DNA of 64,000 nucleotides from Escherichia coli (GTDB lineage: Bacteria > Pseudomonadota > Gammaproteobacteria > Enterobacterales > Enterobacteriaceae), in assembly GCF_044324875.1 (NCBI RefSeq), contig NZ_CP172185.1; one strand, given 5' to 3'. A program made the position numbers and the translations under genes. Below, one piece after another: positions 1 to 63,400 of the stretch (its first letter is position 1; the number at the start of each line of letters is the position of its first letter). Under the pieces are notes generated by a model, which did no database searches, was not told the DNA's origin, and was given only the letters and a program-made list of their open reading frames with translations.

Positions 1-187
1 TATTCATCACGAAAATGTGATCTGTGCCGAAAAATATCTATTAACCGCCCCGTTTTGTTTTATACATGTCCGGACTACGGACAGATTTTAGTATTGTTGT
101 GAAATTATTCTGCTTTATATTTACCCTCAGAGATGGCAACTGAAGCTCTTCCACATGGGGCTTCTTAATCTGTGATAAGGGTAAAAA

Positions 188-1741
188 ATGCAAATGATTA
201 CCTCGCGACAAAACAGATTATTACGATTCCTTTTACCACGAAGGGAATATACGACTATTGTTACGATTGCCGGCTATTTAAATGTTTCGGAAAAAACCAT
301 TCAACGTGATTTACGTTTACTTGAGCAATGGCTGGAACAATGGCGAATAACCGTTGAGAAGCGTGCTGGCGCAGGTGTGATGTTAGACTCGAAGAATATT
401 ACTGATTTGCTGCATCTTGATCATTTGTTGGGAGCAGAATGTGAAGAGATTGATGGTGTAATGAATAATGCCAGGCGCGTTAAAATAGCGTCGCAGTTAT
501 TAATTGAAACACCGAATGAAACGTCGATCAGTAAATTGTCAGAGCGCTATTTTATCAGTGGAGCCTCTATTGTTAATGACCTGAGAGTGATTGAGTCCTG
601 GCTTGCGCCGTTGGGGTTATCATTGATCCGCAGCCCAAGTGGTACGCATATTGAAGGTAGTGAAGGGCAAGTCCGACAGGCAATGGCATTACTGATTAAC
701 GGCATTATTAACCATAATGAGCCGCAAGGTGTCGTGTATTCACGTCTGGATCCCGGAAGTTATAAAGCATTAGTCCATTATTTTGGAGAAGAAGAGGTGT
801 TATTTGTCCAGTCATTGTTACTGGATATGGAAAATGAATTAAGTTGGTCTTTGGGAGAGCCTTATTACGTTAACATTTTTACTCACATCCTTATTATGAT
901 GTATCGCAACACGCACGGGAATGCGTTATCCAGAGAAGAAGATCAAACCAGGCAATATGATGAAAATATCTTTAATGTTGCCAGTCAGATGATTCATAAG
1001 ATAGAACAACGAATTGCACATACATTGCCCGATGATGAAGTCTGGTTTATTTATCAATATATCATTTCATCAGGTGTGGCGATTGATGGACAAAAAGATG
1101 TTAGCATTATTTCACATATGCAGGCCAGCAATGAAGCGCGTCTGATTACCTGGCGTTTAATTACGGTATTCAGTGACATCGTGGACTGCGATTTTAGTGA
1201 AGACAGCGCATTATATGATGGCTTGTTGGTTCATATTAAGCCGCTGATTAACCGACTAAATTATCGCATTCATATCCGTAATCCATTGCTGGAAGATATT
1301 AAAGCAGAATTAGCGGATGTCTGGCGGTTGACGCAATATGTGGTGAATCAGGTATTTAAAACCTGGGGTGAGAATGCAGTGAGCGAGGATGAAGTAGGTT
1401 ACCTGACCGTTCATTTTCAGGCTGCGATGGAGCGGCAAATTGCCCGTAAACGTGTATTACTGGTCTGTTCAACCGGAATCGGAACTTCGCATCTACTGAA
1501 AAGCCGTATTCTGCGAGCATTTCCTGAATGGACGATTGTTGATGTTATTTCAGCAGCGAATTTATCACAGGTTTTGCCTGACAATATCGAACTGATTATT
1601 TCGACCATTAATTTGCCTACAGTCACTATGCCGGTCGCTTATGTTACCGCTTTTTTTAATGATGCCGATATTAAGCGAGTCACTGAAATGGTGATTACGG
1701 GAAAATTACATCATGCGACATCTCGGGTCGTTGAAATTTAA
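188..1741 (+). CDS. PRD-containing transcriptional regulator of a PTS operon (BglG/MtlR/LicR-like; N-terminal HTH, PRD region, C-terminal EIIB-like domain)
   Basis: 517-aa ORF; N-terminal helix-turn-helix-like segment; Cys-containing EIIB-like motif LLVCSTGIGTSHLL near C-terminus; sits directly upstream of EIIA/B/C genes; ATG at 188 preceded by a G-rich RBS-like stretch. Confidence 0.65.
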   Translation: MQMITSRQNRLLRFLLPRREYTTIVTIAGYLNVSEKTIQRDLRLLEQWLEQWRITVEKRAGAGVMLDSKNITDLLHLDHLLGAECEEIDGVMNNARRVKIASQLLIETPNETSISKLSERYFISGASIVNDLRVIESWLAPLGLSLIRSPSGTHIEGSEGQVRQAMALLINGIINHNEPQGVVYSRLDPGSYKALVHYFGEEEVLFVQSLLLDMENELSWSLGEPYYVNIFTHILIMMYRNTHGNALSREEDQTRQYDENIFNVASQMIHKIEQRIAHTLPDDEVWFIYQYIISSGVAIDGQKDVSIISHMQASNEARLITWRLITVFSDIVDCDFSEDSALYDGLLVHIKPLINRLNYRIHIRNPLLEDIKAELADVWRLTQYVVNQVFKTWGENAVSEDEVGYLTVHFQAAMERQIARKRVLLVCSTGIGTSHLLKSRILRAFPEWTIVDVISAANLSQVLPDNIELIISTINLPTVTMPVAYVTAFFNDADIKRVTEMVITGKLHHATSRVVEI

Positions 1742-1767
1742 TGTCAGAATTTTATGAGGTATGACGA

Positions 1768-2238
1768 ATGGACATAACAAAAATCCTGAATACGAATCGC
1801 GTTATTTTAGATATGCAAGCGACGAATAAAGCGGAGGCGATTGAAGAATTAACTAATCTTCTCAAAAAAGATGGTGCGATCGATTGTCGGGAAACCTTTA
1901 TTAAAGATGTCTGGCAGCGCGAAGCGGAAGGCTCGACTGGTTTTGAAAATCATATTGCGATCCCGCATGGTAAATCTTCTGCGGTAATTAATACCACGCT
2001 GGCTATCGGGCGTACCCGGCAGGATATTCCCTGGGAAACACTGGATGGCAGTAGCGTACGCTGTATTATTTTATTTGCGGTACGTCTTGAAGATCAAAAT
2101 ACCACTCATATCCGTTTACTTTCCCAGGTCGCGGGCGCGCTTGCAGATGATGACATCATAGCGCAATTGCTGGTTGAGACGAGCCCGCAAAAAATCATTG
2201 ATCTCTTTAGTCAGTATGCACAATCCGATGTCTACTAA
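1768..2238 (+). CDS. PTS EIIA component (fructose/mannitol type)
   Basis: 156-aa ORF with HIAIPHG phospho-histidine-like motif typical of EIIA type 2; operon position. Confidence 0.7.
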   Translation: MDITKILNTNRVILDMQATNKAEAIEELTNLLKKDGAIDCRETFIKDVWQREAEGSTGFENHIAIPHGKSSAVINTTLAIGRTRQDIPWETLDGSSVRCIILFAVRLEDQNTTHIRLLSQVAGALADDDIIAQLLVETSPQKIIDLFSQYAQSDVY

Positions 2239-2255
2239 ATAACAGGGAGTATATC

Positions 2256-2570
2256 ATGAATATTGTCTGTGTTGCCGCCTGCACGGCGGGTATTGCTCAC
2301 ACCTATATTGCTCGTGAAAAGTTAATTAAAGGGGCAAAAGCACTGGGCCACACCATTAAAGTTGAAACCCAGGGAACCATTGGTACAGAAAACGAATTAC
2401 AGGCGGCAGAGATCTCTGCTGCTGACGTCGTGATTCTTGCTGTGGATGTGAAAATAAAAGGAGAAGAACGTTTTACCAATAAACGCATTGTGCGAGTAAA
2501 GACAGAGATCGTCATTAAATCGCCCGTTCAATTTCTTGAAAAGGTCGAAAAATCACTGGGAAATAAATGA
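2256..2570 (+). CDS. PTS EIIB component (fructose-like)
   Basis: 104-aa ORF, N-terminal Cys motif VCVAACTAGIAHT typical of fructose-type EIIB. Confidence 0.7.
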   Translation: MNIVCVAACTAGIAHTYIAREKLIKGAKALGHTIKVETQGTIGTENELQAAEISAADVVILAVDVKIKGEERFTNKRIVRVKTEIVIKSPVQFLEKVEKSLGNK

Positions 2571-2594
2571 TCCTTATACTGGAGGGATCTTAAT

Positions 2595-3686
2595 ATGAAA
2601 GAAAATGAAATTCCGGTTTCACAGGAAATTAAAAAACATTTATTAACCGGCATCTCGTGGATGATACCCCTTATTGTGGCCGCCGGGATATGTATTGCGT
2701 TGGGGCAAGTTCTTGGCGGTACAGATGTTGGTGAAAAAACAGGAACAATCCCGTGGATGCTTAATCAGATTGGCGGCTGGGGAATGGGGCTGATTGTGCC
2801 GCTGATTAGCGCGGCAATTGCCTATTCTATTGCCGATCGTCCCGGATTTGCCCCGGGCCTGATTGTCGGCTTTCTCTGTGGGCAAATCCATACCGGATTT
2901 ATTGGCGGTATGTTGGGTGGTTTCCTGGTGGGCTACACCATTTTGCTACTTAAACGCTATATTCGCCTGCCGCAGTCGATGCAAGGACTCATGCCAATCA
3001 TGGTGTTGCCGGTATTAAGCACCATTATCGGTGGGCTGTTAATGATGACGCTGATTGGTAAACCCATCGCCTGGTTACAAGAAGCACTGATTCATTTGCT
3101 CGAGTCGATGCAGGGCGGATCGCGCTTCCTGATGGGGGCCATACTTGGCGCGATGGCAACCTTCGATTTCGGTGGTCCGGTCAACAAAACCATGTCGCTG
3201 TTTTCCGATGGCTTGCTGGTCAGTGGCGTCTACGGACCAGAAGCCGTGAAATTTGTCGGCTCAATCATCCCTCCGTTTGGCATCACACTTTCGTTCTTAC
3301 TGACACGCCATAAATACACCCGTGCGGAGCGCGAGGCGCTGAAAGCCGCGTTTCCGATGGGGATCTGCATGATCACTGAAGGAGTCATTCCGATCGCCGC
3401 GCGTGACCTGTTGCGAGTAGTGGGATCTTGTGTGGTGGCATCGGCGGTCGCGGGCGGCTTAATCATGGTGTGGGGCGTGGAGAGTCCGGTTCCACATGGC
3501 GGCATGTTTGTTGTGCCTCTGTTCACCCATCCTCTGCTGTTTTGCCTGGCGCTGGGTATAGGCACGGTGATTTGTGGCGTGATGCTTTCACTCTGGAAGA
3601 AACCGGTAACGGAACGCGACGAAGAGTTTGACGAACTGAGCGATCAAAAGCTGAAAGATGAAGAGATCATTTTCACCCTCGAATAA
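2595..3686 (+). CDS. PTS EIIC permease (fructose-like family)
   Basis: 363-aa hydrophobic, Gly-rich multi-pass ORF immediately after EIIA/EIIB. Confidence 0.7.
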   Translation: MKENEIPVSQEIKKHLLTGISWMIPLIVAAGICIALGQVLGGTDVGEKTGTIPWMLNQIGGWGMGLIVPLISAAIAYSIADRPGFAPGLIVGFLCGQIHTGFIGGMLGGFLVGYTILLLKRYIRLPQSMQGLMPIMVLPVLSTIIGGLLMMTLIGKPIAWLQEALIHLLESMQGGSRFLMGAILGAMATFDFGGPVNKTMSLFSDGLLVSGVYGPEAVKFVGSIIPPFGITLSFLLTRHKYTRAEREALKAAFPMGICMITEGVIPIAARDLLRVVGSCVVASAVAGGLIMVWGVESPVPHGGMFVVPLFTHPLLFCLALGIGTVICGVMLSLWKKPVTERDEEFDELSDQKLKDEEIIFTLE

Positions 3687-3697
3687 CCGGAGGCCCT

Positions 3698-4549
3698 ATG
3701 TTTGCCGATATGAAAAGTATGGTGATGAAAGCCTGGCATGAACATTACGCCTTGCTGGCGATCAACTGTATGAATCTGGAAAGTGCTCGCGCAGCTATCC
3801 GCGTGGCGGAGAAGAATCGCGCTCCGATCATTCTCAATCTCTATCAGGGGCATCTGGCGCATTTTCCTGCACCCGTCGCGGCGGCAGTGGTTAAAACGCT
3901 CGCGGAATCTGCCTCAGTACCGGTCACTCTGGCGCTTGATCATGGCAAAAATCCGGACTGTATTCGTCAGGCGTTTCGTGCTGGTTTCAGCGGATTAATG
4001 ATTGATGCTTCTGCTTTTCCCTTGGAGGAAAACGTGCGCCAGACCAAGGCGGTGGTGGAACTCGCCGCCAGCGCGCAGCTCTGCGTTGAAGGCGAACTGG
4101 GCCATCTGGCAGATGCGCCGCGTTACGACCAGGCCGCCAATGCAGACATGATGACGCAACCCACTGATGTGGAAGCGTTTATCGCGCAGACAGGCATTGA
4201 TCTACTGGCCGTTTCGGTAGGCACGGCGCACGGCATGTACGCGCCTGGTGTTGTACCTGCTATTGATTTTCAGCGTCTGGCGGAGATTTTCCACTGCTCG
4301 AGCGTGCCTCTGGCATTACATGGTTGTAGCGGTACGCCGTTCGATCAGCTCCAGCTCTGTACGACTCTGGGGGTAGCAAAAATCAACGTGGGGGCGGCCA
4401 TTTTTGAACGGGGGAAATCCGCGCTCCTGCATACCCTCTGTCACGATATATCCATTGAACTGGTGGACGCGCTGAAAGCTATGGAACTGGCCTTCGAAGA
4501 AGCGATTACACCGTATTTACAGGCGAGCGGCTCTATCGGCAAAGCCTGA
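3698..4549 (+). CDS. class II ketose-bisphosphate aldolase paralog 1 (FbaA/GatY/KbaY family)
   Basis: 283 aa; motifs LALDHG, GTAHGMY, LALHGCSG matching the zinc-ligand histidines of class II aldolases. Confidence 0.65.
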   Translation: MFADMKSMVMKAWHEHYALLAINCMNLESARAAIRVAEKNRAPIILNLYQGHLAHFPAPVAAAVVKTLAESASVPVTLALDHGKNPDCIRQAFRAGFSGLMIDASAFPLEENVRQTKAVVELAASAQLCVEGELGHLADAPRYDQAANADMMTQPTDVEAFIAQTGIDLLAVSVGTAHGMYAPGVVPAIDFQRLAEIFHCSSVPLALHGCSGTPFDQLQLCTTLGVAKINVGAAIFERGKSALLHTLCHDISIELVDALKAMELAFEEAITPYLQASGSIGKA

Positions 4550-4629
4550 TTCATTTTCTGTCATGGCCTTTATGCCAGTGCAATAACGCACCGGCAGGGC
4601 GGACTACACGCTGAAACTGGAGATTTAAC

Positions 4630-5490
4630 ATGTTAGTTTCGATGAAAGAATTACTGCAACCTACCCGCCAGCACGGCTTTGCCATTGGCGCATTTAATGT
4701 GGCGGATAACTGTTTCCTTCGCGCAGTCGTGGATGAAGCAGAAGCGACAAATACTCCGGCGATTATTGCCATCCATCCCAGCGAACATGATTTTGTGGGC
4801 GATGCCTTTTTCGCTCACGTTCGCGAAATTACCCAGCGTAGTCCGGTCCCGTTTGTACTGCACCTCGATCATGGTGCCTCTGTAGAGCATGTTTTGCGTG
4901 CGATTCGCTGCGGATTTACCTCAGTAATGATCGACGGTTCGCTGCTGCCGTATGAAGAAAACGTGGCGCTGACCGCAGAAGTGGTTCGCCTCGCTCACGC
5001 GGTTGGAGTGTCGGTTGAGGGTGAACTGGGAACCATCGGACAAACAGGAACGTCGGTAGAAGGTGGTGTTTCACAAGTGACCTACACAGATCCGGCGCAG
5101 GCCGCCGATTTTATTGCTCGTACAGGTGCCGACACTCTGGCTGTGGCGATTGGTACAGCGCATGGCATCTATCCAAAAGGGATGCAGCCGAAGCTGCAAA
5201 TGGACATTTTGCGCGACATTGCCGGACGTATTGATATTCCGCTGGTGCTACACGGTGGTTCGGCAAACCCGGACGCGGAGATTGCTGAATCAGTTACGCT
5301 CGGCGTCGGCAAAATCAATATCTCCAGCGATATGAAATACGCCTATTTCCAGAAAGTGCGTGAAATTCTCGCTAAAGAGAGCTGGTGGGACCCGAACGTC
5401 ATCTATCCGGATGCGATTAACGCGGCGCGGGAAGTCATTCGCCACAAAATGAAACTGTTCGGTTCGCTCGGTAAAGCATCACTGTACTAA
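4630..5490 (+). CDS. class II ketose-bisphosphate aldolase paralog 2 (tagatose/fructose-bisphosphate aldolase-like)
   Basis: 286 aa; motifs GAFNV, LHLDHG, GTAHGIY, LVLHGGS typical of GatY/KbaY/FbaA family. Confidence 0.7.
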   Translation: MLVSMKELLQPTRQHGFAIGAFNVADNCFLRAVVDEAEATNTPAIIAIHPSEHDFVGDAFFAHVREITQRSPVPFVLHLDHGASVEHVLRAIRCGFTSVMIDGSLLPYEENVALTAEVVRLAHAVGVSVEGELGTIGQTGTSVEGGVSQVTYTDPAQAADFIARTGADTLAVAIGTAHGIYPKGMQPKLQMDILRDIAGRIDIPLVLHGGSANPDAEIAESVTLGVGKINISSDMKYAYFQKVREILAKESWWDPNVIYPDAINAAREVIRHKMKLFGSLGKASLY

Positions 5491-5537
5491 GCCAGAAGGG
5501 CGGGGTGACCCGCCTTTTACGCAACAAGGAACGAGAT

Positions 5538-6470
5538 ATGCACTATCTGGGGTTGGATATTGGTGGGACCAAAATCGCCGCCGTCGTCATGGATGCGCAT
5601 GGCTGGGAGATTCGCCGTTACCGCTGCCCGACGCAAAAGTCGACATATCAACAATTTGTCTCATGCGTTGTGGCGTTTATCGAGCAGATTAGGCGGGACG
5701 TTCAACGACCGATGCTGACAGGGATCGCCTTACCCGGCAGTATCTCGCCACTCACTGGCCTGATTAAAAACGCGAATATTCAGGTGATTAACGGTCATGC
5801 GTTACAGGCTGATTTGCAGCAATTGCTTGGGCAACCGGTGGTGATAGCCAATGATGGTAACTGTTTCGCGCTATCAGAAGCTTGCGACGGTGCCGGGCAA
5901 GATTATGACGTGGTATTTGGTATTACGCTTGGTACGGGCTGCGGCGGTGGCATTGCCATCAAGCAACGACCGTTTATAGGGGCCTGGGGAAATGCTGCCG
6001 AATGCGGTCATATCACGTTGCCAGGCTATACGGAGCAGGAAGATGGTCCATCAGTCAGTTGCTATTGCGGCAAACACAACTGCGTGGAGTCGTTTGTTTC
6101 CGGCAGCGGTTTTAGTGAACGCTATCAACAGATGACTGGTAACTTGCTCACTCCTGCGGCGATTGTCACCCTGGCACAACGTGGTGATGCTTGTGCCATG
6201 CAGCAGGTGGCACGTTTTCGCCAACAGCTTGCCCGCACGCTGGCAACCATCGTTAACGTTGTTGACCCTGGCGTGATTGTGATCGGCGGCGGGCTTTCGA
6301 ATGTGGAACTGCTTATCACCGCTCTGAACGCAGAAGTTGCTCCACTGGTTTTCACCGATCAATTCACCACTCCCATTGTAAAAGCACAGCACGGCGACAG
6401 TAGCGGAATGCGTGGCGCTGCCTGGCTTGCTATGCGCAACGGAGAAGCCAATGAAACGTTCACAAATTAA
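5538..6470 (+). CDS. ROK-family sugar kinase
   Basis: ORF track 5505-6470; likely ATG at 5538 (MHYLGLDIGGTK) preceded by AAGGA; LGLDIGGTK ATP-binding motif and CYCGKHNCVE zinc motif typical of ROK kinases. Confidence 0.7.
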   Translation: MHYLGLDIGGTKIAAVVMDAHGWEIRRYRCPTQKSTYQQFVSCVVAFIEQIRRDVQRPMLTGIALPGSISPLTGLIKNANIQVINGHALQADLQQLLGQPVVIANDGNCFALSEACDGAGQDYDVVFGITLGTGCGGGIAIKQRPFIGAWGNAAECGHITLPGYTEQEDGPSVSCYCGKHNCVESFVSGSGFSERYQQMTGNLLTPAAIVTLAQRGDACAMQQVARFRQQLARTLATIVNVVDPGVIVIGGGLSNVELLITALNAEVAPLVFTDQFTTPIVKAQHGDSSGMRGAAWLAMRNGEANETFTN

Positions 6471-17941: not shown

Positions 17942-20330
<2,389 letters not shown>

Positions 20331-20620
20331 GGTTCTCTCCCTAAAAATCTGTCTGGCAGGGTAGCGATTTGTGCGTATTGTCACGATTGAGATTTTTTAA
20401 GGTGAGAGGAAATTGATAACTTGTAGTTATGTGAAATCGCTATTTTCTGTAGCGTAGATGCATTCTTCTGACTTCTTGTCTGAGAAAATGCATAAGAAAA
20501 AATAGGTTAAAATTGAGGGGTGGAAAAGAAAGGTGCAATGTTTAGCCATTGTGTTCACCGCACCTGGACTTTGGCTTACGCATCGGGTATCTCAATCAAC
20601 AAAAGAGTTTTTAGTTTCTG

Positions 20621-21445
20621 CTATTTCTTCTCTGTAATTTTTACACTGTTTTCCAACTGCTTGATGCTGACCTGCGGGGTCGGCAACTCCTCAGGCATGG
20701 TTCCGCCAAGTTCCTGAATGGTTTGCCTCACCTTGCTACCCACGTCAAAGTGTGTGGTATTAGCTTGCTGTTTTGAATTCACGCCATCCCGCTTGAGTTT
20801 TTCTTCTGTTTGGGTAGCTCGAAAGAGATTAGCCGCCAGTTCTGTTGAACCCATATGATCCAGGATCTTCTGACTCTTTTTCAGCCCCTTCCGCTGATGG
20901 ATGGCTTTCTGATCTAATCCACCATACAGCCCCCGGTAACCATGATTCTGAAATATGGCGAAATCGATAGCTGTCGCTACCCCAGCTTGCTGCGCTGCCT
21001 CAACTAATTGTTTGTTATGTTCTTTCAACTCATTTCTCAGAAAAAGACGCTTTTCGTCTTCACGAAGTTGCCTGAAAGCTTCATCGTCAGCCAGCTCCTG
21101 TCGTCGGGTCTGGATAGCAAAATAAGTTTGCCCTGCCGCAATAACCGGTTTCGCAGGGTCGCCGTTTTGTACTACCAGGTAACAGGCATAGCGGGAGAGT
21201 ACGATGTCTTTTAATGCTCTTTTGGCATTTGAGCCAATTTTGACCATATCGAGGATCTCCTCGAAATGGTCATCAATTGTGTGACCACTATTCAGACAAG
21301 CTTCTTTGGCGCGCGTTAATACAGGTATAAAGTGACGATACTCTGAATAACCCAGTAGTTTCCCAAGTTGTCTTGCTGACCATTGTTCTGCTCCGTTTGC
21401 ATTAATCAGCTTTATCTCTTCAAAAGGTTGATGATGTTCGTTCAT
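20621..21445 (-). CDS. dinD: DNA damage-inducible protein D
   Basis: ORF track 20621-21457; start at MNEHHQPFEEIK; LexA box found 46 nt upstream. Confidence 0.8.
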   Translation of the reverse strand: MNEHHQPFEEIKLINANGAEQWSARQLGKLLGYSEYRHFIPVLTRAKEACLNSGHTIDDHFEEILDMVKIGSNAKRALKDIVLSRYACYLVVQNGDPAKPVIAAGQTYFAIQTRRQELADDEAFRQLREDEKRLFLRNELKEHNKQLVEAAQQAGVATAIDFAIFQNHGYRGLYGGLDQKAIHQRKGLKKSQKILDHMGSTELAANLFRATQTEEKLKRDGVNSKQQANTTHFDVGSKVRQTIQELGGTMPEELPTPQVSIKQLENSVKITEKK

Positions 21446-21490
21446 TGCCCACTCCATGTGATATCGATTGCAAGGAAAGTAAGTCTACAA

Positions 21491-21506
21491 CTGTGTTTAT
21501 ATACAG
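21491..21506. promoter_or_regulatory. LexA (SOS) box upstream of dinD
   Basis: CTGTGTTTATATACAG matches CTGT-N8-ACAG consensus, 46-61 nt upstream of dinD start. Confidence 0.6.
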
Positions 21507-21665
21507 TTGTGAGTATCTCACGTTCTCACTGCGCTGGGCAAAAAAACATCGCAAAATCTGGAGCAGGCACGCAAAACAGAATTGAATGTTGCGGGGAAGA
21601 AAAATGCCGCTCTGTTTTAGTGGCGGCATTTGTGAAGGCGGAAAAGTAAGAATTGGCGTTACGAG

Positions 21666-22529
21666 TTACTCGATATTCTGGATCTGCTCGCGCATCTGCT
21701 CAATCAACACTTTCAGCTCAATCGCGGAGTTTGTCACTTCGGCATTGATAGACTTCGACGCAAGAGTGTTCGACTCGCGGTTGAATTCCTGCATCATAAA
21801 GTCCAGACGACGACCAACGGCTTCTTTTTTCTTCAGAATGTTGTAGGTCTCTTTGACATGCGCTTCTAGGCGGTCCAGTTCTTCGGCAACGTCAATTCGT
21901 TGTGCCAGCAGAACCAACTCCTGCTCCAGACGGTTGTTTTCCAACTGAACCTGAGCATCTTCCAGCTTCGCGACCAGACGCTCACGCTGCCATTGCAGGA
22001 TTTCCGGCATATGGGCGCGGACTTTGACCACTTCGGCGGTGACGCCTTCCAGACGCTGCTCGATCAATGCTTTCAGCGCCTGACCTTCGGTTTCGCGCGC
22101 GACGATAAAGTCGTCCAGCGTACCATCCAACGCCGCGAGAATTTCAGCGGCAATCGCGTCGAGATCCTGCTCCTGGGCTGCCATCACGCCCGGCCAGCGT
22201 AGAATATCAACCGGGTTGATTTCCCCTTCGTCACTCTGCATTTTTACCCAGTTCGCGGCAGTTACCAGCTGTTTAGCCAGTTTTTCGTTGAGGATCAGCT
22301 CACCTTGTGCGCTAACATCTGGTTCATAGCGCAGGGTACATTCCACTTTACCGCGCGTCAGGCGAGAACGAATACGCTCGCGAACGACAGGTTCAAGGCT
22401 ACGGAACTGCTCCGGCAGACGAAAGTAAGTTTCCAGATAACGCTGGTTTACCGAGCGCATTTCCCAGGTTGCGCTCCCCCATTCACCCTTGATTTCACGC
22501 CGGGCGTAGGCGGTCATACTGCGGATCAT
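21666..22529 (-). CDS. yicC: YicC-family stress-induced protein
   Basis: 287-aa ORF recognised as YicC. Confidence 0.85.
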   Translation of the reverse strand: MIRSMTAYARREIKGEWGSATWEMRSVNQRYLETYFRLPEQFRSLEPVVRERIRSRLTRGKVECTLRYEPDVSAQGELILNEKLAKQLVTAANWVKMQSDEGEINPVDILRWPGVMAAQEQDLDAIAAEILAALDGTLDDFIVARETEGQALKALIEQRLEGVTAEVVKVRAHMPEILQWQRERLVAKLEDAQVQLENNRLEQELVLLAQRIDVAEELDRLEAHVKETYNILKKKEAVGRRLDFMMQEFNRESNTLASKSINAEVTNSAIELKVLIEQMREQIQNIE

Positions 22530-22655
22530 AGACGTTCCTGTTTATAAAAGGAGAGGTGGAAGGATTATAGCCATCGATGCCTTGTCAGGATAGGAATAAC
22601 CGCCGGAAGTCCGTATAATGCGCAGCCACATTTGTTTCAAGCCGGAGATTTCAAT

Positions 22656-23372
22656 ATGCGTCCAGCAGGCCGTAGCAATAATCAGGTGCGTCCCGTTACC
22701 CTGACTCGTAACTATACAAAACATGCAGAAGGCTCGGTGCTGGTCGAATTTGGCGATACCAAAGTATTGTGTACCGCCTCTATTGAAGAAGGCGTGCCGC
22801 GCTTCCTGAAAGGTCTGGGCCAGGGCTGGATCACCGCAGAGTACGGCATGCTGCCACGTTCTACCCACACCCGTAACGCGCGTGAAGCGGCGAAAGGTAA
22901 GCAGGGTGGACGCACCATGGAAATCCAGCGTCTGATCGCCCGTGCTCTTCGTGCGGCAGTAGATTTGAAAGCGCTGGGTGAGTTCACTATTACGCTGGAC
23001 TGCGACGTGCTTCAGGCTGATGGTGGCACGCGTACCGCTTCGATTACGGGTGCCTGCGTGGCGCTGGCAGATGCGCTACAGAAGCTGGTGGAAAACGGCA
23101 AGCTGAAAACCAACCCGATGAAAGGGATGGTAGCCGCAGTTTCTGTCGGGATTGTGAACGGCGAAGCGGTTTGCGATCTGGAATACGTTGAAGACTCTGC
23201 CGCTGAAACGGACATGAACGTGGTGATGACTGAAGACGGGCGCATCATTGAAGTGCAGGGGACGGCAGAAGGCGAGCCGTTCACCCATGAAGAGCTTCTC
23301 ACCTTGTTGGCGCTGGCCCGAGGGGGAATCGAATCCATTGTAGCGACGCAGAAGGCGGCGCTGGCAAACTGA
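22656..23372 (+). CDS. rph: ribonuclease PH (intact)
   Basis: ORF track 22632-23372; start at ATG 22656 ([14 protein letters not shown]) giving 238 aa with complete C-terminus. Confidence 0.85.
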
Positions 23373-23377
23373 TTTTT

Positions 23378-23406
23378 AAGGCGACTGATGAGTCGCCTTT
23401 TTTTTG
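23378..23406 (+). terminator. rph-pyrE intercistronic attenuator/terminator hairpin
   Basis: AAGGCGACT-GATG-AGTCGCCTT stem-loop followed by run of 8 T, just after rph stop and 32 nt before pyrE ATG. Confidence 0.65.
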
Positions 23407-23437
23407 TCTGTAGAAAAGTAAGATGAGGAGCGAAGGC

Positions 23438-24079
23438 ATGAAACCATATCAGCGCCAGTTTATTGAATTTGCGCTTAGCAAGCAGGTGTTAAAGTTTGGC
23501 GAGTTTACGCTGAAATCCGGGCGCAAAAGCCCCTATTTCTTCAACGCCGGGCTGTTTAATACCGGGCGCGATCTGGCACTGTTAGGCCGTTTTTACGCTG
23601 AAGCATTGGTGGATTCCGGCATTGAGTTCGATCTGCTGTTTGGCCCTGCTTACAAAGGGATCCCGATTGCGACCACTACCGCCGTGGCGCTGGCGGAGCA
23701 TCATGACCTTGACCTGCCGTACTGCTTTAACCGCAAAGAGGCAAAATACCACGGTGAAGGCGGCAATCTGGTTGGTAGCGCGTTACAAGGACGCGTAATG
23801 CTGGTAGATGATGTGATCACCGCCGGAACGGCGATCCGCGAGTCGATGGAAATTATTCAGGCCAATGGCGCGACGCTTGCTGGCGTATTGATTTCGCTCG
23901 ATCGTCAGGAACGGGGGCGCGGCGAGATTTCGGCAATTCAGGAAGTTGAGCGTGATTACAACTGCAAAGTGATCTCTATCATCACCCTGAAAGACCTGAT
24001 TGCTTACCTGGAAGAGAAGCCGGAAATGGCGAAACATCTGGCGGCGGTTAAGGCCTATCGCGAAGAGTTCGGCGTTTAA
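23438..24079 (+). CDS. pyrE: orotate phosphoribosyltransferase
   Basis: ORF track 23423-24079; start at [11 protein letters not shown] giving 213 aa. Confidence 0.9.
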
Positions 24080-60441: not shown

Positions 60442-63400
60442 TTACCACTGAATACCGGCACCGAGTGCGGCGGAGTATTCACCCTGGCTATTGGTACTAC
60501 CTTGTAATTTGTAGACCCAACGACCATTGGCGCTCACCATCGACACACCTAAAGCAACAGCCGATTCACCATTGTAAGTACCGCCACCAATAGAGGCCAT
60601 GCTGGCACCTGGAGTGTAAGCCTGCGGCAGACCGGTCATTGCCATTGCAGAAGCGATACCACCGCTCAACTTGCTTTCGGTTTTGGACAGTTTGTTATCC
60701 ATCTCAACCATCCGCTGATCGGTGTATTGCTTCGTTTCCTGCACGCTTTGCTTCAACTGCGCATAGTTCACTGCGTCGTTGTTGTTGACGCCAGCAGAGA
60801 CGTTGCTGATGCGAGTCGTACCGCCATTACCACCACCGAGAGTGATGTTGCTGTAGTCTATAGAACCATCAGCTTTGGTGTCGTAACGAACGCCGCCTGC
60901 CTCAGAAGACTTCAGCTGCGAAACGTTAACCGCATCGGTGGCATTAACACCTGCAGCAACGTTGGTGATACGACGCTGGTTGGTAGAAGAACCCACAGAG
61001 ATGGTGTTTTCTTCGTTGGCCACGGAACCGGTACCCAGCGCGACGCTGTTGTCAGCGGCAGCAATGGAACCAGAACCAATTGCAACACTGTCTTTACCCT
61101 GCGCGTTGGCATCTACGCCATCGGTGTTGGTCTTGAAGTATTTGGTGCTACCGGTGGTTACGATATCGCCAATGCCGTTTTCGATATTGGTAACGCGAGT
61201 ATCCAGATTCGTCACCTGATTGTTCAGGTTAGTAATGCTCTGGGTATTCTGGGAAACCTGCGCGTCCGTTACTTTCAACTGACCCACGTTAACCGCATCG
61301 GTATCAGCCGAACCAGCCGCGACGTTGGTGATCTGACGTTGACCGTCTTCACTGCCGACAGAGAACTCACCCACAGAGTTCTGCGGTGCGTCCATGTTGT
61401 AGGCGGCGTAGCCAGTTTGAGCACCACGAGTCGTCTGTGAGCCATTACCCATAGCAATGCTGTTTGCATGGTTTGCACGCGCGTTGCTACCGATAGCAAT
61501 GCCATTAAGTGCATTCGCGTCCACGTAGGCACCATAACCGATACCAATACCCGCATTACCATTAACGATAGTTTTCGCGCCCATTGCTAGCGAGTCTTCA
61601 CCTACTGCCAGTGAATCTTCTTCCGTTGAGTTGGCGTGGAAGTATTTGGTCGGCGTGGTAGCGACTGCACCAATGGCATTTTGCAACTGGCGAACCGTAA
61701 CGGCGTCATGGGCTTCGGAACCATCGGCTACGTTGATGATTTGACGATATTTACCGTCATCACCAATAGACAACGCACCAAGTAGTTCGCCATCCGTGGT
61801 GTCATAACCAATCACAACACCTTCTTCCGACACGCTGGTGTCACGAGAACCTTTAACTATTACACGGCTGGAAACGGAACTGCTACCCAGGGCGATACCC
61901 GTATCAACGGAGCTGCTGCTACCTTGACCAATGGCTACGCTGCTTTCGCCTGAGGCGACAGCGTTATAACCCACAGCCGTAGCGCCAATACCTGAAGCGC
62001 TGGCATCGTTGAACGCTAAGCCGTTGTCGTTGGTACGTACATAGTTAATGTCCGCACCGTTATCTTCGATGTAGGTTTCGCTGGTGTTACCGGCAAGCTG
62101 ATTGATGATTTCGCTGTTCTGCTGGATCAGCATATTGGTGTTAAACAGCTGAGAACCGTTGATGGCGTCAGTGCTGCCTTCGCCAATGTTACCATCAGCA
62201 ACATTTGTGATGATGCTGGCCTTGCCGTCATGGCTGGCGTTGTAGGCACCTGCGCCGTCATTGGCTGTTGCATCCCACAGCAGAGCGTTATCGTCGAGCG
62301 CATCCAGGGCGTCACCGACGTTGTTGTACTCGGCATTTGCAATGGTGTAACTCGGCGCAGTGATAGTGCCATCAGCGTTGACTTCTGCGTCACCACCCAG
62401 CGCATCAGCGATGTACTTGTTGGTGGTATACAGTTGTGAACCGTTAATGGCATCGCTGCTGGTGGAGGAAATTGCACCGTTAGCGACGTTAGTGATTACA
62501 CTGGCTGTTTTATCTTTTCCGTGAGCGGCGCTAAATGCACCATTACCATCATTGGCTGTGGCATCCCACAGCAGGGCGTCATCCAGCGTGGTATCGATCG
62601 CTTCCAGCGCGTCACCGACGTTGCTGTAACTGCCGCCAGCGATGGCATAAGTCGGTGCGGTGATTGTGCCGTCAGCATTGACTTCTGCGTCACCACCCAG
62701 AGTATCGGCAATGTACTTGCTGGTGTCATAGAGCTGTGAGCCGTTAATAGCGTCGCTGCTGGTAGAGGAAATTGCACCGTCTGCAACATTAGTAATGATG
62801 CTGGCCGTGTTATCTTTTCCGCGACCGGCGCTAAACGCACCGTCACCGCCCTTGGCGGTCGCATCCCAGAGTAGGGCGTCACCCAGTGATGTGCTAAATG
62901 ACGTGTTAATGGCAGCCAGAGCATCACCGACGTTATTGTAGTCAGTACCACCAATAGTGTAGGTTGGCCCGGTTAATACACCCGCATCACTGATATCAGC
63001 ACCACCGCCAAGGTATGACGTAAATGAATCAGCTAAGCCATAAAGTTGTGAGCCATTAATGGCGTCAGTGCTATCAGAGGATACCGTGCCTGCCAGTAAG
63101 TTGGTGATTTTGCTGTCAGTACCGTTGGTGCCGTGTTTGGCACTGAATGCACCCGCCGTAGCGTTCCACAGCAGGGAATCGTCACCGAGACTGTCAACAG
63201 CGTCAGTCAGGTTGGTGATGTTGGTGGTGTTCGTGGCGATATTGGTGGTGTTGGTTGCCACGGCATCGTTAGTGGTTTTCAGCTGAGAGCCGTTTACCGC
63301 GTCAGTGCTGCCAGCCGTCAGGTCACCGTCTTTGACGTTGGTGATTTTGCTGGTGGCTTCGGTACCGTGCGCGGCGCTGAATGCACCCGCCGTAGCGTTC

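Follow-up and report, generated by a model that had tools for sequence, protein, structure and literature searches.

LexA is presumed here, on the strength of older papers, to bind the dinD box of E. coli K-12. This box was reportedly described in the mid-1990s (by Lundegaard and Jensen in 1994, Lewis et al. in 1994 and Ohmori et al. in 1995) and is said to be among the sites of Fernandez de Henestrosa et al. 2000 and of Courcelle et al. 2001, while Uranga et al. 2011 reportedly found that the DinD protein inhibits RecA filaments in vitro. The dinD LexA motif of K-12 is listed as AACTGTATATAAATACAGTT (PMC3009722, Table 4), and for K-12 dinD a heterology index of 2.2, a 9.8-fold induction by AZT and a 12-fold dependence on LexA cleavage have been published (PMC11228462, Table 1).

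The locus described here lies in a window of 64,000 nucleotides, by which we mean the whole stretch of E. coli DNA that was analysed. Positions 21446-21665 of this window are exactly the dinD-yicC intergenic region, bounded by the dinD ATG (21445) and by the stop codon of yicC, which starts at 21666 (Table 1). The original prediction had placed CTGTGTTTATATACAG, as a good match to the LexA box, at 21491-21506; these coordinates were found to be exact, and the site scores 23.5 bits. On the plus strand, this sequence is the palindromic core CTGT-N8-ACAG, with CTG and CAG intact, of a 20-mer that reads AACTGTGTTTATATACAGTT on the same strand. The spacer between the CTGT and ACAG arms is 8 bp long and is A+T at 7 of its 8 positions, and the box lies upstream of the dinD ATG at a distance of 44 nt. 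Judging from the sequence, the weight matrix and the alignment with K-12, we are highly confident that this palindrome is the LexA operator of the minus-strand dinD gene, in the form of a one-base natural variant of the K-12 operator. What is directly established for the box is its sequence identity, its score and its orthology to the K-12 site.

Table 1. Coordinates of the features of the dinD-yicC region within the window.
Feature	Position	Strand	Basis
Coding sequence of dinD (274 aa and stop codon), encoding a Bro-N domain protein	20621..21445	-	ORF, RefSeq start, Pfam Bro-N E = 9e-8
Shine-Dalgarno sequence GGAG, 6 nt upstream of the dinD ATG	21452..21455	-	read from sequence
LexA box (SOS operator) of dinD, 20-mer AACTGTATATAAACACAGTT	21489..21508	-	sequence, weight matrix, K-12 alignment
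Single base that differs from K-12, box position 14: C (G on the plus strand) instead of T	21495	-	MG1655 alignment
Putative extended -10: TG 21520-21519, one base, GATACT 21517-21512	21512..21520	-	lenient scan
Putative -35 element of the dinD promoter, TTGCCC	21536..21541	-	lenient sigma-70 scan
Terminator-like hairpin downstream of yicC (stem 21631-21602), then UUUUUCUU	21597..21631	-	RNA fold
yicC (YicC/YloC endoribonuclease), upstream neighbour	21666..22529	-	ORF, RefSeq annotation

The gene behind the box had been named as dinD, and both the RefSeq annotation of an identical sequence and the alignment with K-12 agree with this. Over window 21400-21720, the stretch that was compared, E. 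coli CFSAN061763 shows 100% identity, and RefSeq names the gene dinD there. The annotated start of dinD is the ATG at 21445, and not the in-frame ATG at 21457. Downstream, dinD is followed by yicG on the minus strand, and the gene order ligB-yicG-dinD-yicC-rph-pyrE is common to the window and K-12. Of these genes, rph is intact in the window at 22656-23372 (plus strand); K-12 MG1655 has the rph-1 frameshift, so the window does not come from a laboratory strain of K-12.

A comparison with the K-12 operator had been proposed as a check on the prediction. It bore out the orthology of the two sites but not their full identity, the window carrying a minority C allele. The K-12 dinD (pcsA) box is found at the same locus, between the same neighbours, at the same 44-nt distance from the ATG and with the same candidate -35 and -10 elements, and 19 of its 20 bases are identical to those of the window. 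The remaining base, at box position 14, is T in K-12 and C in the window, and the window box scores about 2 bits lower. Over the 321-nt region, the alignment with MG1655 shows a match of about 96%, with three more differing positions just downstream of the box. With neighbours, spacing and 19 of 20 bases in common, the window box and the dinD operator of K-12 are orthologous. The dinD operator is already known and nothing about it is new; the window holds a widespread natural form of it, one base away from that of K-12. Given that the dinD SOS box is a classical high-affinity LexA operator, the site has little importance beyond correct annotation, and the small additions that it provides are at the level of the population.

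For the weight matrix, the 18 K-12 LexA motifs of PMC3009722 Table 4 were taken without that of dinD (leaving 17), the counts were made symmetric, and every 20-mer of the window was scored. In this leave-dinD-out scan, which had likewise been proposed as a check, the dinD box reaches 23.5 bits and ranks first in the 64 kb; the next best position has 9.5 bits, 14 bits below it. The 18 published operators range from 12.9 to 28.8 bits on the same matrix, so the dinD box falls in the upper-middle of their range, and it outscores the operators of recA, sulA, lexA, uvrB and uvrD. Simulating the window 300 times with a first-order Markov model never gave 23.5 bits; the best score per run had a mean of 11.4 and a maximum of 20.9. 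A second LexA box was considered and rejected, as nothing else in the intergenic region or in the window is above 9.5 bits.

Simple pattern matching is less informative at this site. Compared with the idealised gammaproteobacterial consensus TACTG(TA)5CAGTA, the window box has both arms intact and four mismatches elsewhere (positions 1, 12, 14 and 20), none of them in the CTGT and ACAG arms. Because of these four mismatches, a search of the window with the same consensus, allowing up to three mismatches, returned no matches. The bare CTGT-N8-ACAG pattern occurs four times in the window, with 0.59 occurrences expected; this enrichment is partly an artefact, since the matches at 62265 and 62556 are copies of one coding repeat of about 300 nt. 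All three matches other than the dinD box have G+C-rich spacers, and none of them is among the 15 best weight-matrix scores. The repeat itself belongs to a 1,095-aa ORF at 60442-63729 (minus strand), which is made up of tandem coding repeats of about 300 nt and is the source of two of the four matches. Judged from its translation, this ORF looks like a trimeric autotransporter adhesin.

The box had also been assigned to the dinD promoter region. By consensus matching, the box would lie 3 nt past the end of the sole sigma-70-like candidate; the strand of the gene and of this candidate is now refined to minus. That candidate is the only one found by a lenient sigma-70 scan on the minus strand of the intergenic region, and it falls below the threshold of a stricter scan. 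Its TTGCCC and GATACT hexamers are separated by an 18-nt spacer with the TG inside, and it matches the consensus at 8 of 12 positions in addition to the extended -10 TG. The candidate -35, TG and -10 are unchanged in 8 other aligned E. coli genomes. No mapped dinD transcription start was found in the literature searched, which included transcription-start studies. With the -10 ending 3 nt ahead of the box, transcription would be expected to start at approximately 21503-21506, within the first arm, where bound LexA would cover the start. We thus infer both the position of the promoter and a steric occlusion of the start by LexA from the layout of the sequence. By the standard mechanism, the most likely one here, a LexA dimer in the undamaged cell would occupy the CTGT and ACAG arms of the box, which extends from about -3 to +17 relative to the predicted start, and would block initiation by RNA polymerase. 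Upon DNA damage, RecA filaments would trigger the self-cleavage of LexA, the operator would be vacated and dinD would be transcribed.

On the side of yicC, the terminator-like hairpin has a folding energy of -12.2 kcal/mol (z = -2.5) and a U-run after its stem. It probably ends yicC transcription, and it separates yicC from the dinD promoter. A stricter consensus scan of 21300-21800 for terminators and promoters returned none at its thresholds, the yicC hairpin included. A search of 20300-22800 against Rfam at a permissive E-value gave no match, and hence no known RNA element was detected in that interval.

Two other readings of the palindrome compete with that of a LexA operator at a promoter of dinD's own. 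One holds that it is an A+T-rich inverted repeat arisen by chance, or that it serves a different regulator, and that LexA has no function there. Other CTGT-N8-ACAG matches without function do exist in the window, which is what such a reading would expect. However, the dinD box stands 14 bits clear of any other position in the 64 kb and was not equalled in the 300 simulations; it is also orthologous to the site of K-12 dinD, a gene whose expression is LexA-dependent. Furthermore, it has a single variable position among the aligned E. coli haplotypes, and the region has no Rfam match. We regard a palindrome devoid of LexA function as extremely improbable. It is also very unlikely that the box serves mainly as a roadblock or attenuator of read-through from yicC. 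The hairpin and U-run directly after yicC argue against this, as do the candidate -35, TG and -10, which are unchanged across the aligned haplotypes. The box also lies just past the candidate -10 element, and a box directly after the -10 is the typical layout of SOS promoters. In favour of a roadblock are the observations that yicC and dinD are co-oriented and 220 nt apart, and that the promoter candidate, with 8 of 12 consensus positions, is a weak one. The palindrome is best read as the LexA operator of dinD.

To place the window allele within the species, 5,426 complete E. coli genomes were queried with 31-mers that require the allele for a match; the counts obtained are minimum values, since a 31-mer no longer matches when there is a mismatch nearby. 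The C allele of the window is present in at least 807 of these genomes (approximately 15%) and the T allele of K-12 in at least 3,351. A one-base operator polymorphism divides E. coli into two main alleles. Among the carriers of the C allele are Nissle 1917, ATCC 25922, 83972, NRG 857C and an APEC O1:K1:H7 strain; Nissle 1917 and some other carriers are B2-type strains. When the window is aligned with 8 genomes, at an intergenic difference of about 5%, the box varies at position 14 only; right next to it, on either side, several positions vary in the same 9 sequences. A divergent dinD allele, with 84% amino-acid identity, keeps an identical box at 44 nt from the ATG.

The T-to-C change at position 14 costs 2.2 bits on the weight matrix (25.6 to 23.5). 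A heterology-index-like score of the Berg-von Hippel form, derived from the same sites as the matrix, was also computed. It gives 2.65 for the window box versus 2.14 for K-12 dinD, with the published sites at 0.3-9.3, and the value for K-12 is close to the published heterology index of 2.2. With symmetrised counts, the values are 4.7 for the window box versus 3.1 for K-12 dinD. The change therefore amounts to +0.5 unsymmetrised units, as against +1.5 to +1.6 symmetrised ones. The operators of lexA, yebG, uvrD and polB also have C at box position 14, and those of lexA, yebG and polB share the half-site CTGTG with the window box. These four operators differ from it in that they control other genes and have lower overall scores. 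Hence, a C at this position is within the natural range of working sites. The C allele is predicted to bind LexA slightly less than the T allele, and still to be among the stronger SOS boxes.

A larger effect can be envisaged, in which the change weakens the dinD operator enough to bring about higher basal expression of dinD, or its earlier induction, than in K-12. The 2.2-bit cost on the symmetric matrix and the rise of 1.5 to 1.6 symmetrised units are in keeping with this, and the C allele has become fixed in a considerable minority (807 of 5,426 genomes, with Nissle 1917, ATCC 25922 and 83972 included). Nevertheless, on the weight matrix the C-allele box still outscores the operators of recA, sulA, lexA, uvrB and uvrD, the unsymmetrised score changes by only +0.5, and the base in question lies outside the CTGT arm and is found in four working operators. 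We therefore consider a weakening of this extent unlikely. In the farthest-reaching reading, the C allele would measurably reduce LexA affinity and move dinD earlier in the SOS order of induction, and the SOS control of the gene would more broadly be labile in evolution within E. coli, with the operator split in 268 genomes, dinD missing from about 710 and no LexA box at the homologs of other genera; this we likewise consider unlikely. The preferred reading remains that of a LexA operator with a predicted slight loss of binding.

Several genomes differ at this locus by more than one base. In E. coli WCHEC025157 (positions 2674-2683 and 3990-3998 of the extracted locus), the ISL3-family element ISKox3 is located in the A+T-rich centre of the dinD box, at a point that matches window 21493-21500. 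The target duplication is 8 bp long, ATTTATAT. The insertion splits the operator and cuts dinD off from the predicted promoter. An identical junction between ISKox3 and the dinD box is present in 268 of the 5,426 complete genomes; the A+T-rich centre of the box has been an IS insertion target.

In E. coli APEC17, dinD is absent together with its promoter and operator (3746-3998 of the extracted locus, equivalent to window 20385-21680). Approximately 250 nt of unrelated sequence lie between yicG and yicC in this strain, and the 3' end of yicC is different. The dinD-less junction of APEC17 is common to about 710 of the 5,426 genomes, and dinD is for this reason an accessory gene in E. coli. Where the gene is present, two deeply divergent coding haplotypes are found, with about 84% amino-acid identity (window 20621-21410 versus five other loci). 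They part about 35 nt into the gene, and the operator and promoter upstream are nearly identical. A divergence that starts inside the gene, next to a near-identical upstream region, suggests that the dinD haplotypes are a recombination mosaic.

Full-length homologs of DinD are also found outside E. coli, in Streptococcus satellite phages, gut phages, a Bacteroides phage and assorted plasmids. Upstream of the dinD homologs of Klebsiella pneumoniae, a Thiothrix plasmid and Neisseria gonorrhoeae, no LexA-like box was found, the best score being below 5 bits. The identity of these three homologs is 59-71%; that of K. pneumoniae (70.6%) is at a different locus, where it adjoins ibpB. Given that none of the three has a box, the evidence for conservation of the operator is confined to E. 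coli, and cross-genus footprinting neither supports nor undermines the E. coli dinD site. To judge from these upstream regions, SOS control seems to belong to the E. coli locus and not to the protein family. The name "DNA damage-inducible protein D" was probably transferred to the three homologs without evidence of SOS control.

Finally, positions 1-5822 of GenBank MG065686 ("UNVERIFIED: Campylobacter phage A18a") are 97% identical to the E. coli chromosome over at least 5.8 kb. This stretch is equivalent to window 18123-23946, the dinD operator included, and is probably an assembly contaminant. A further record, MG065691, matches DinD at the same identity as MG065686, with DinD alone compared.
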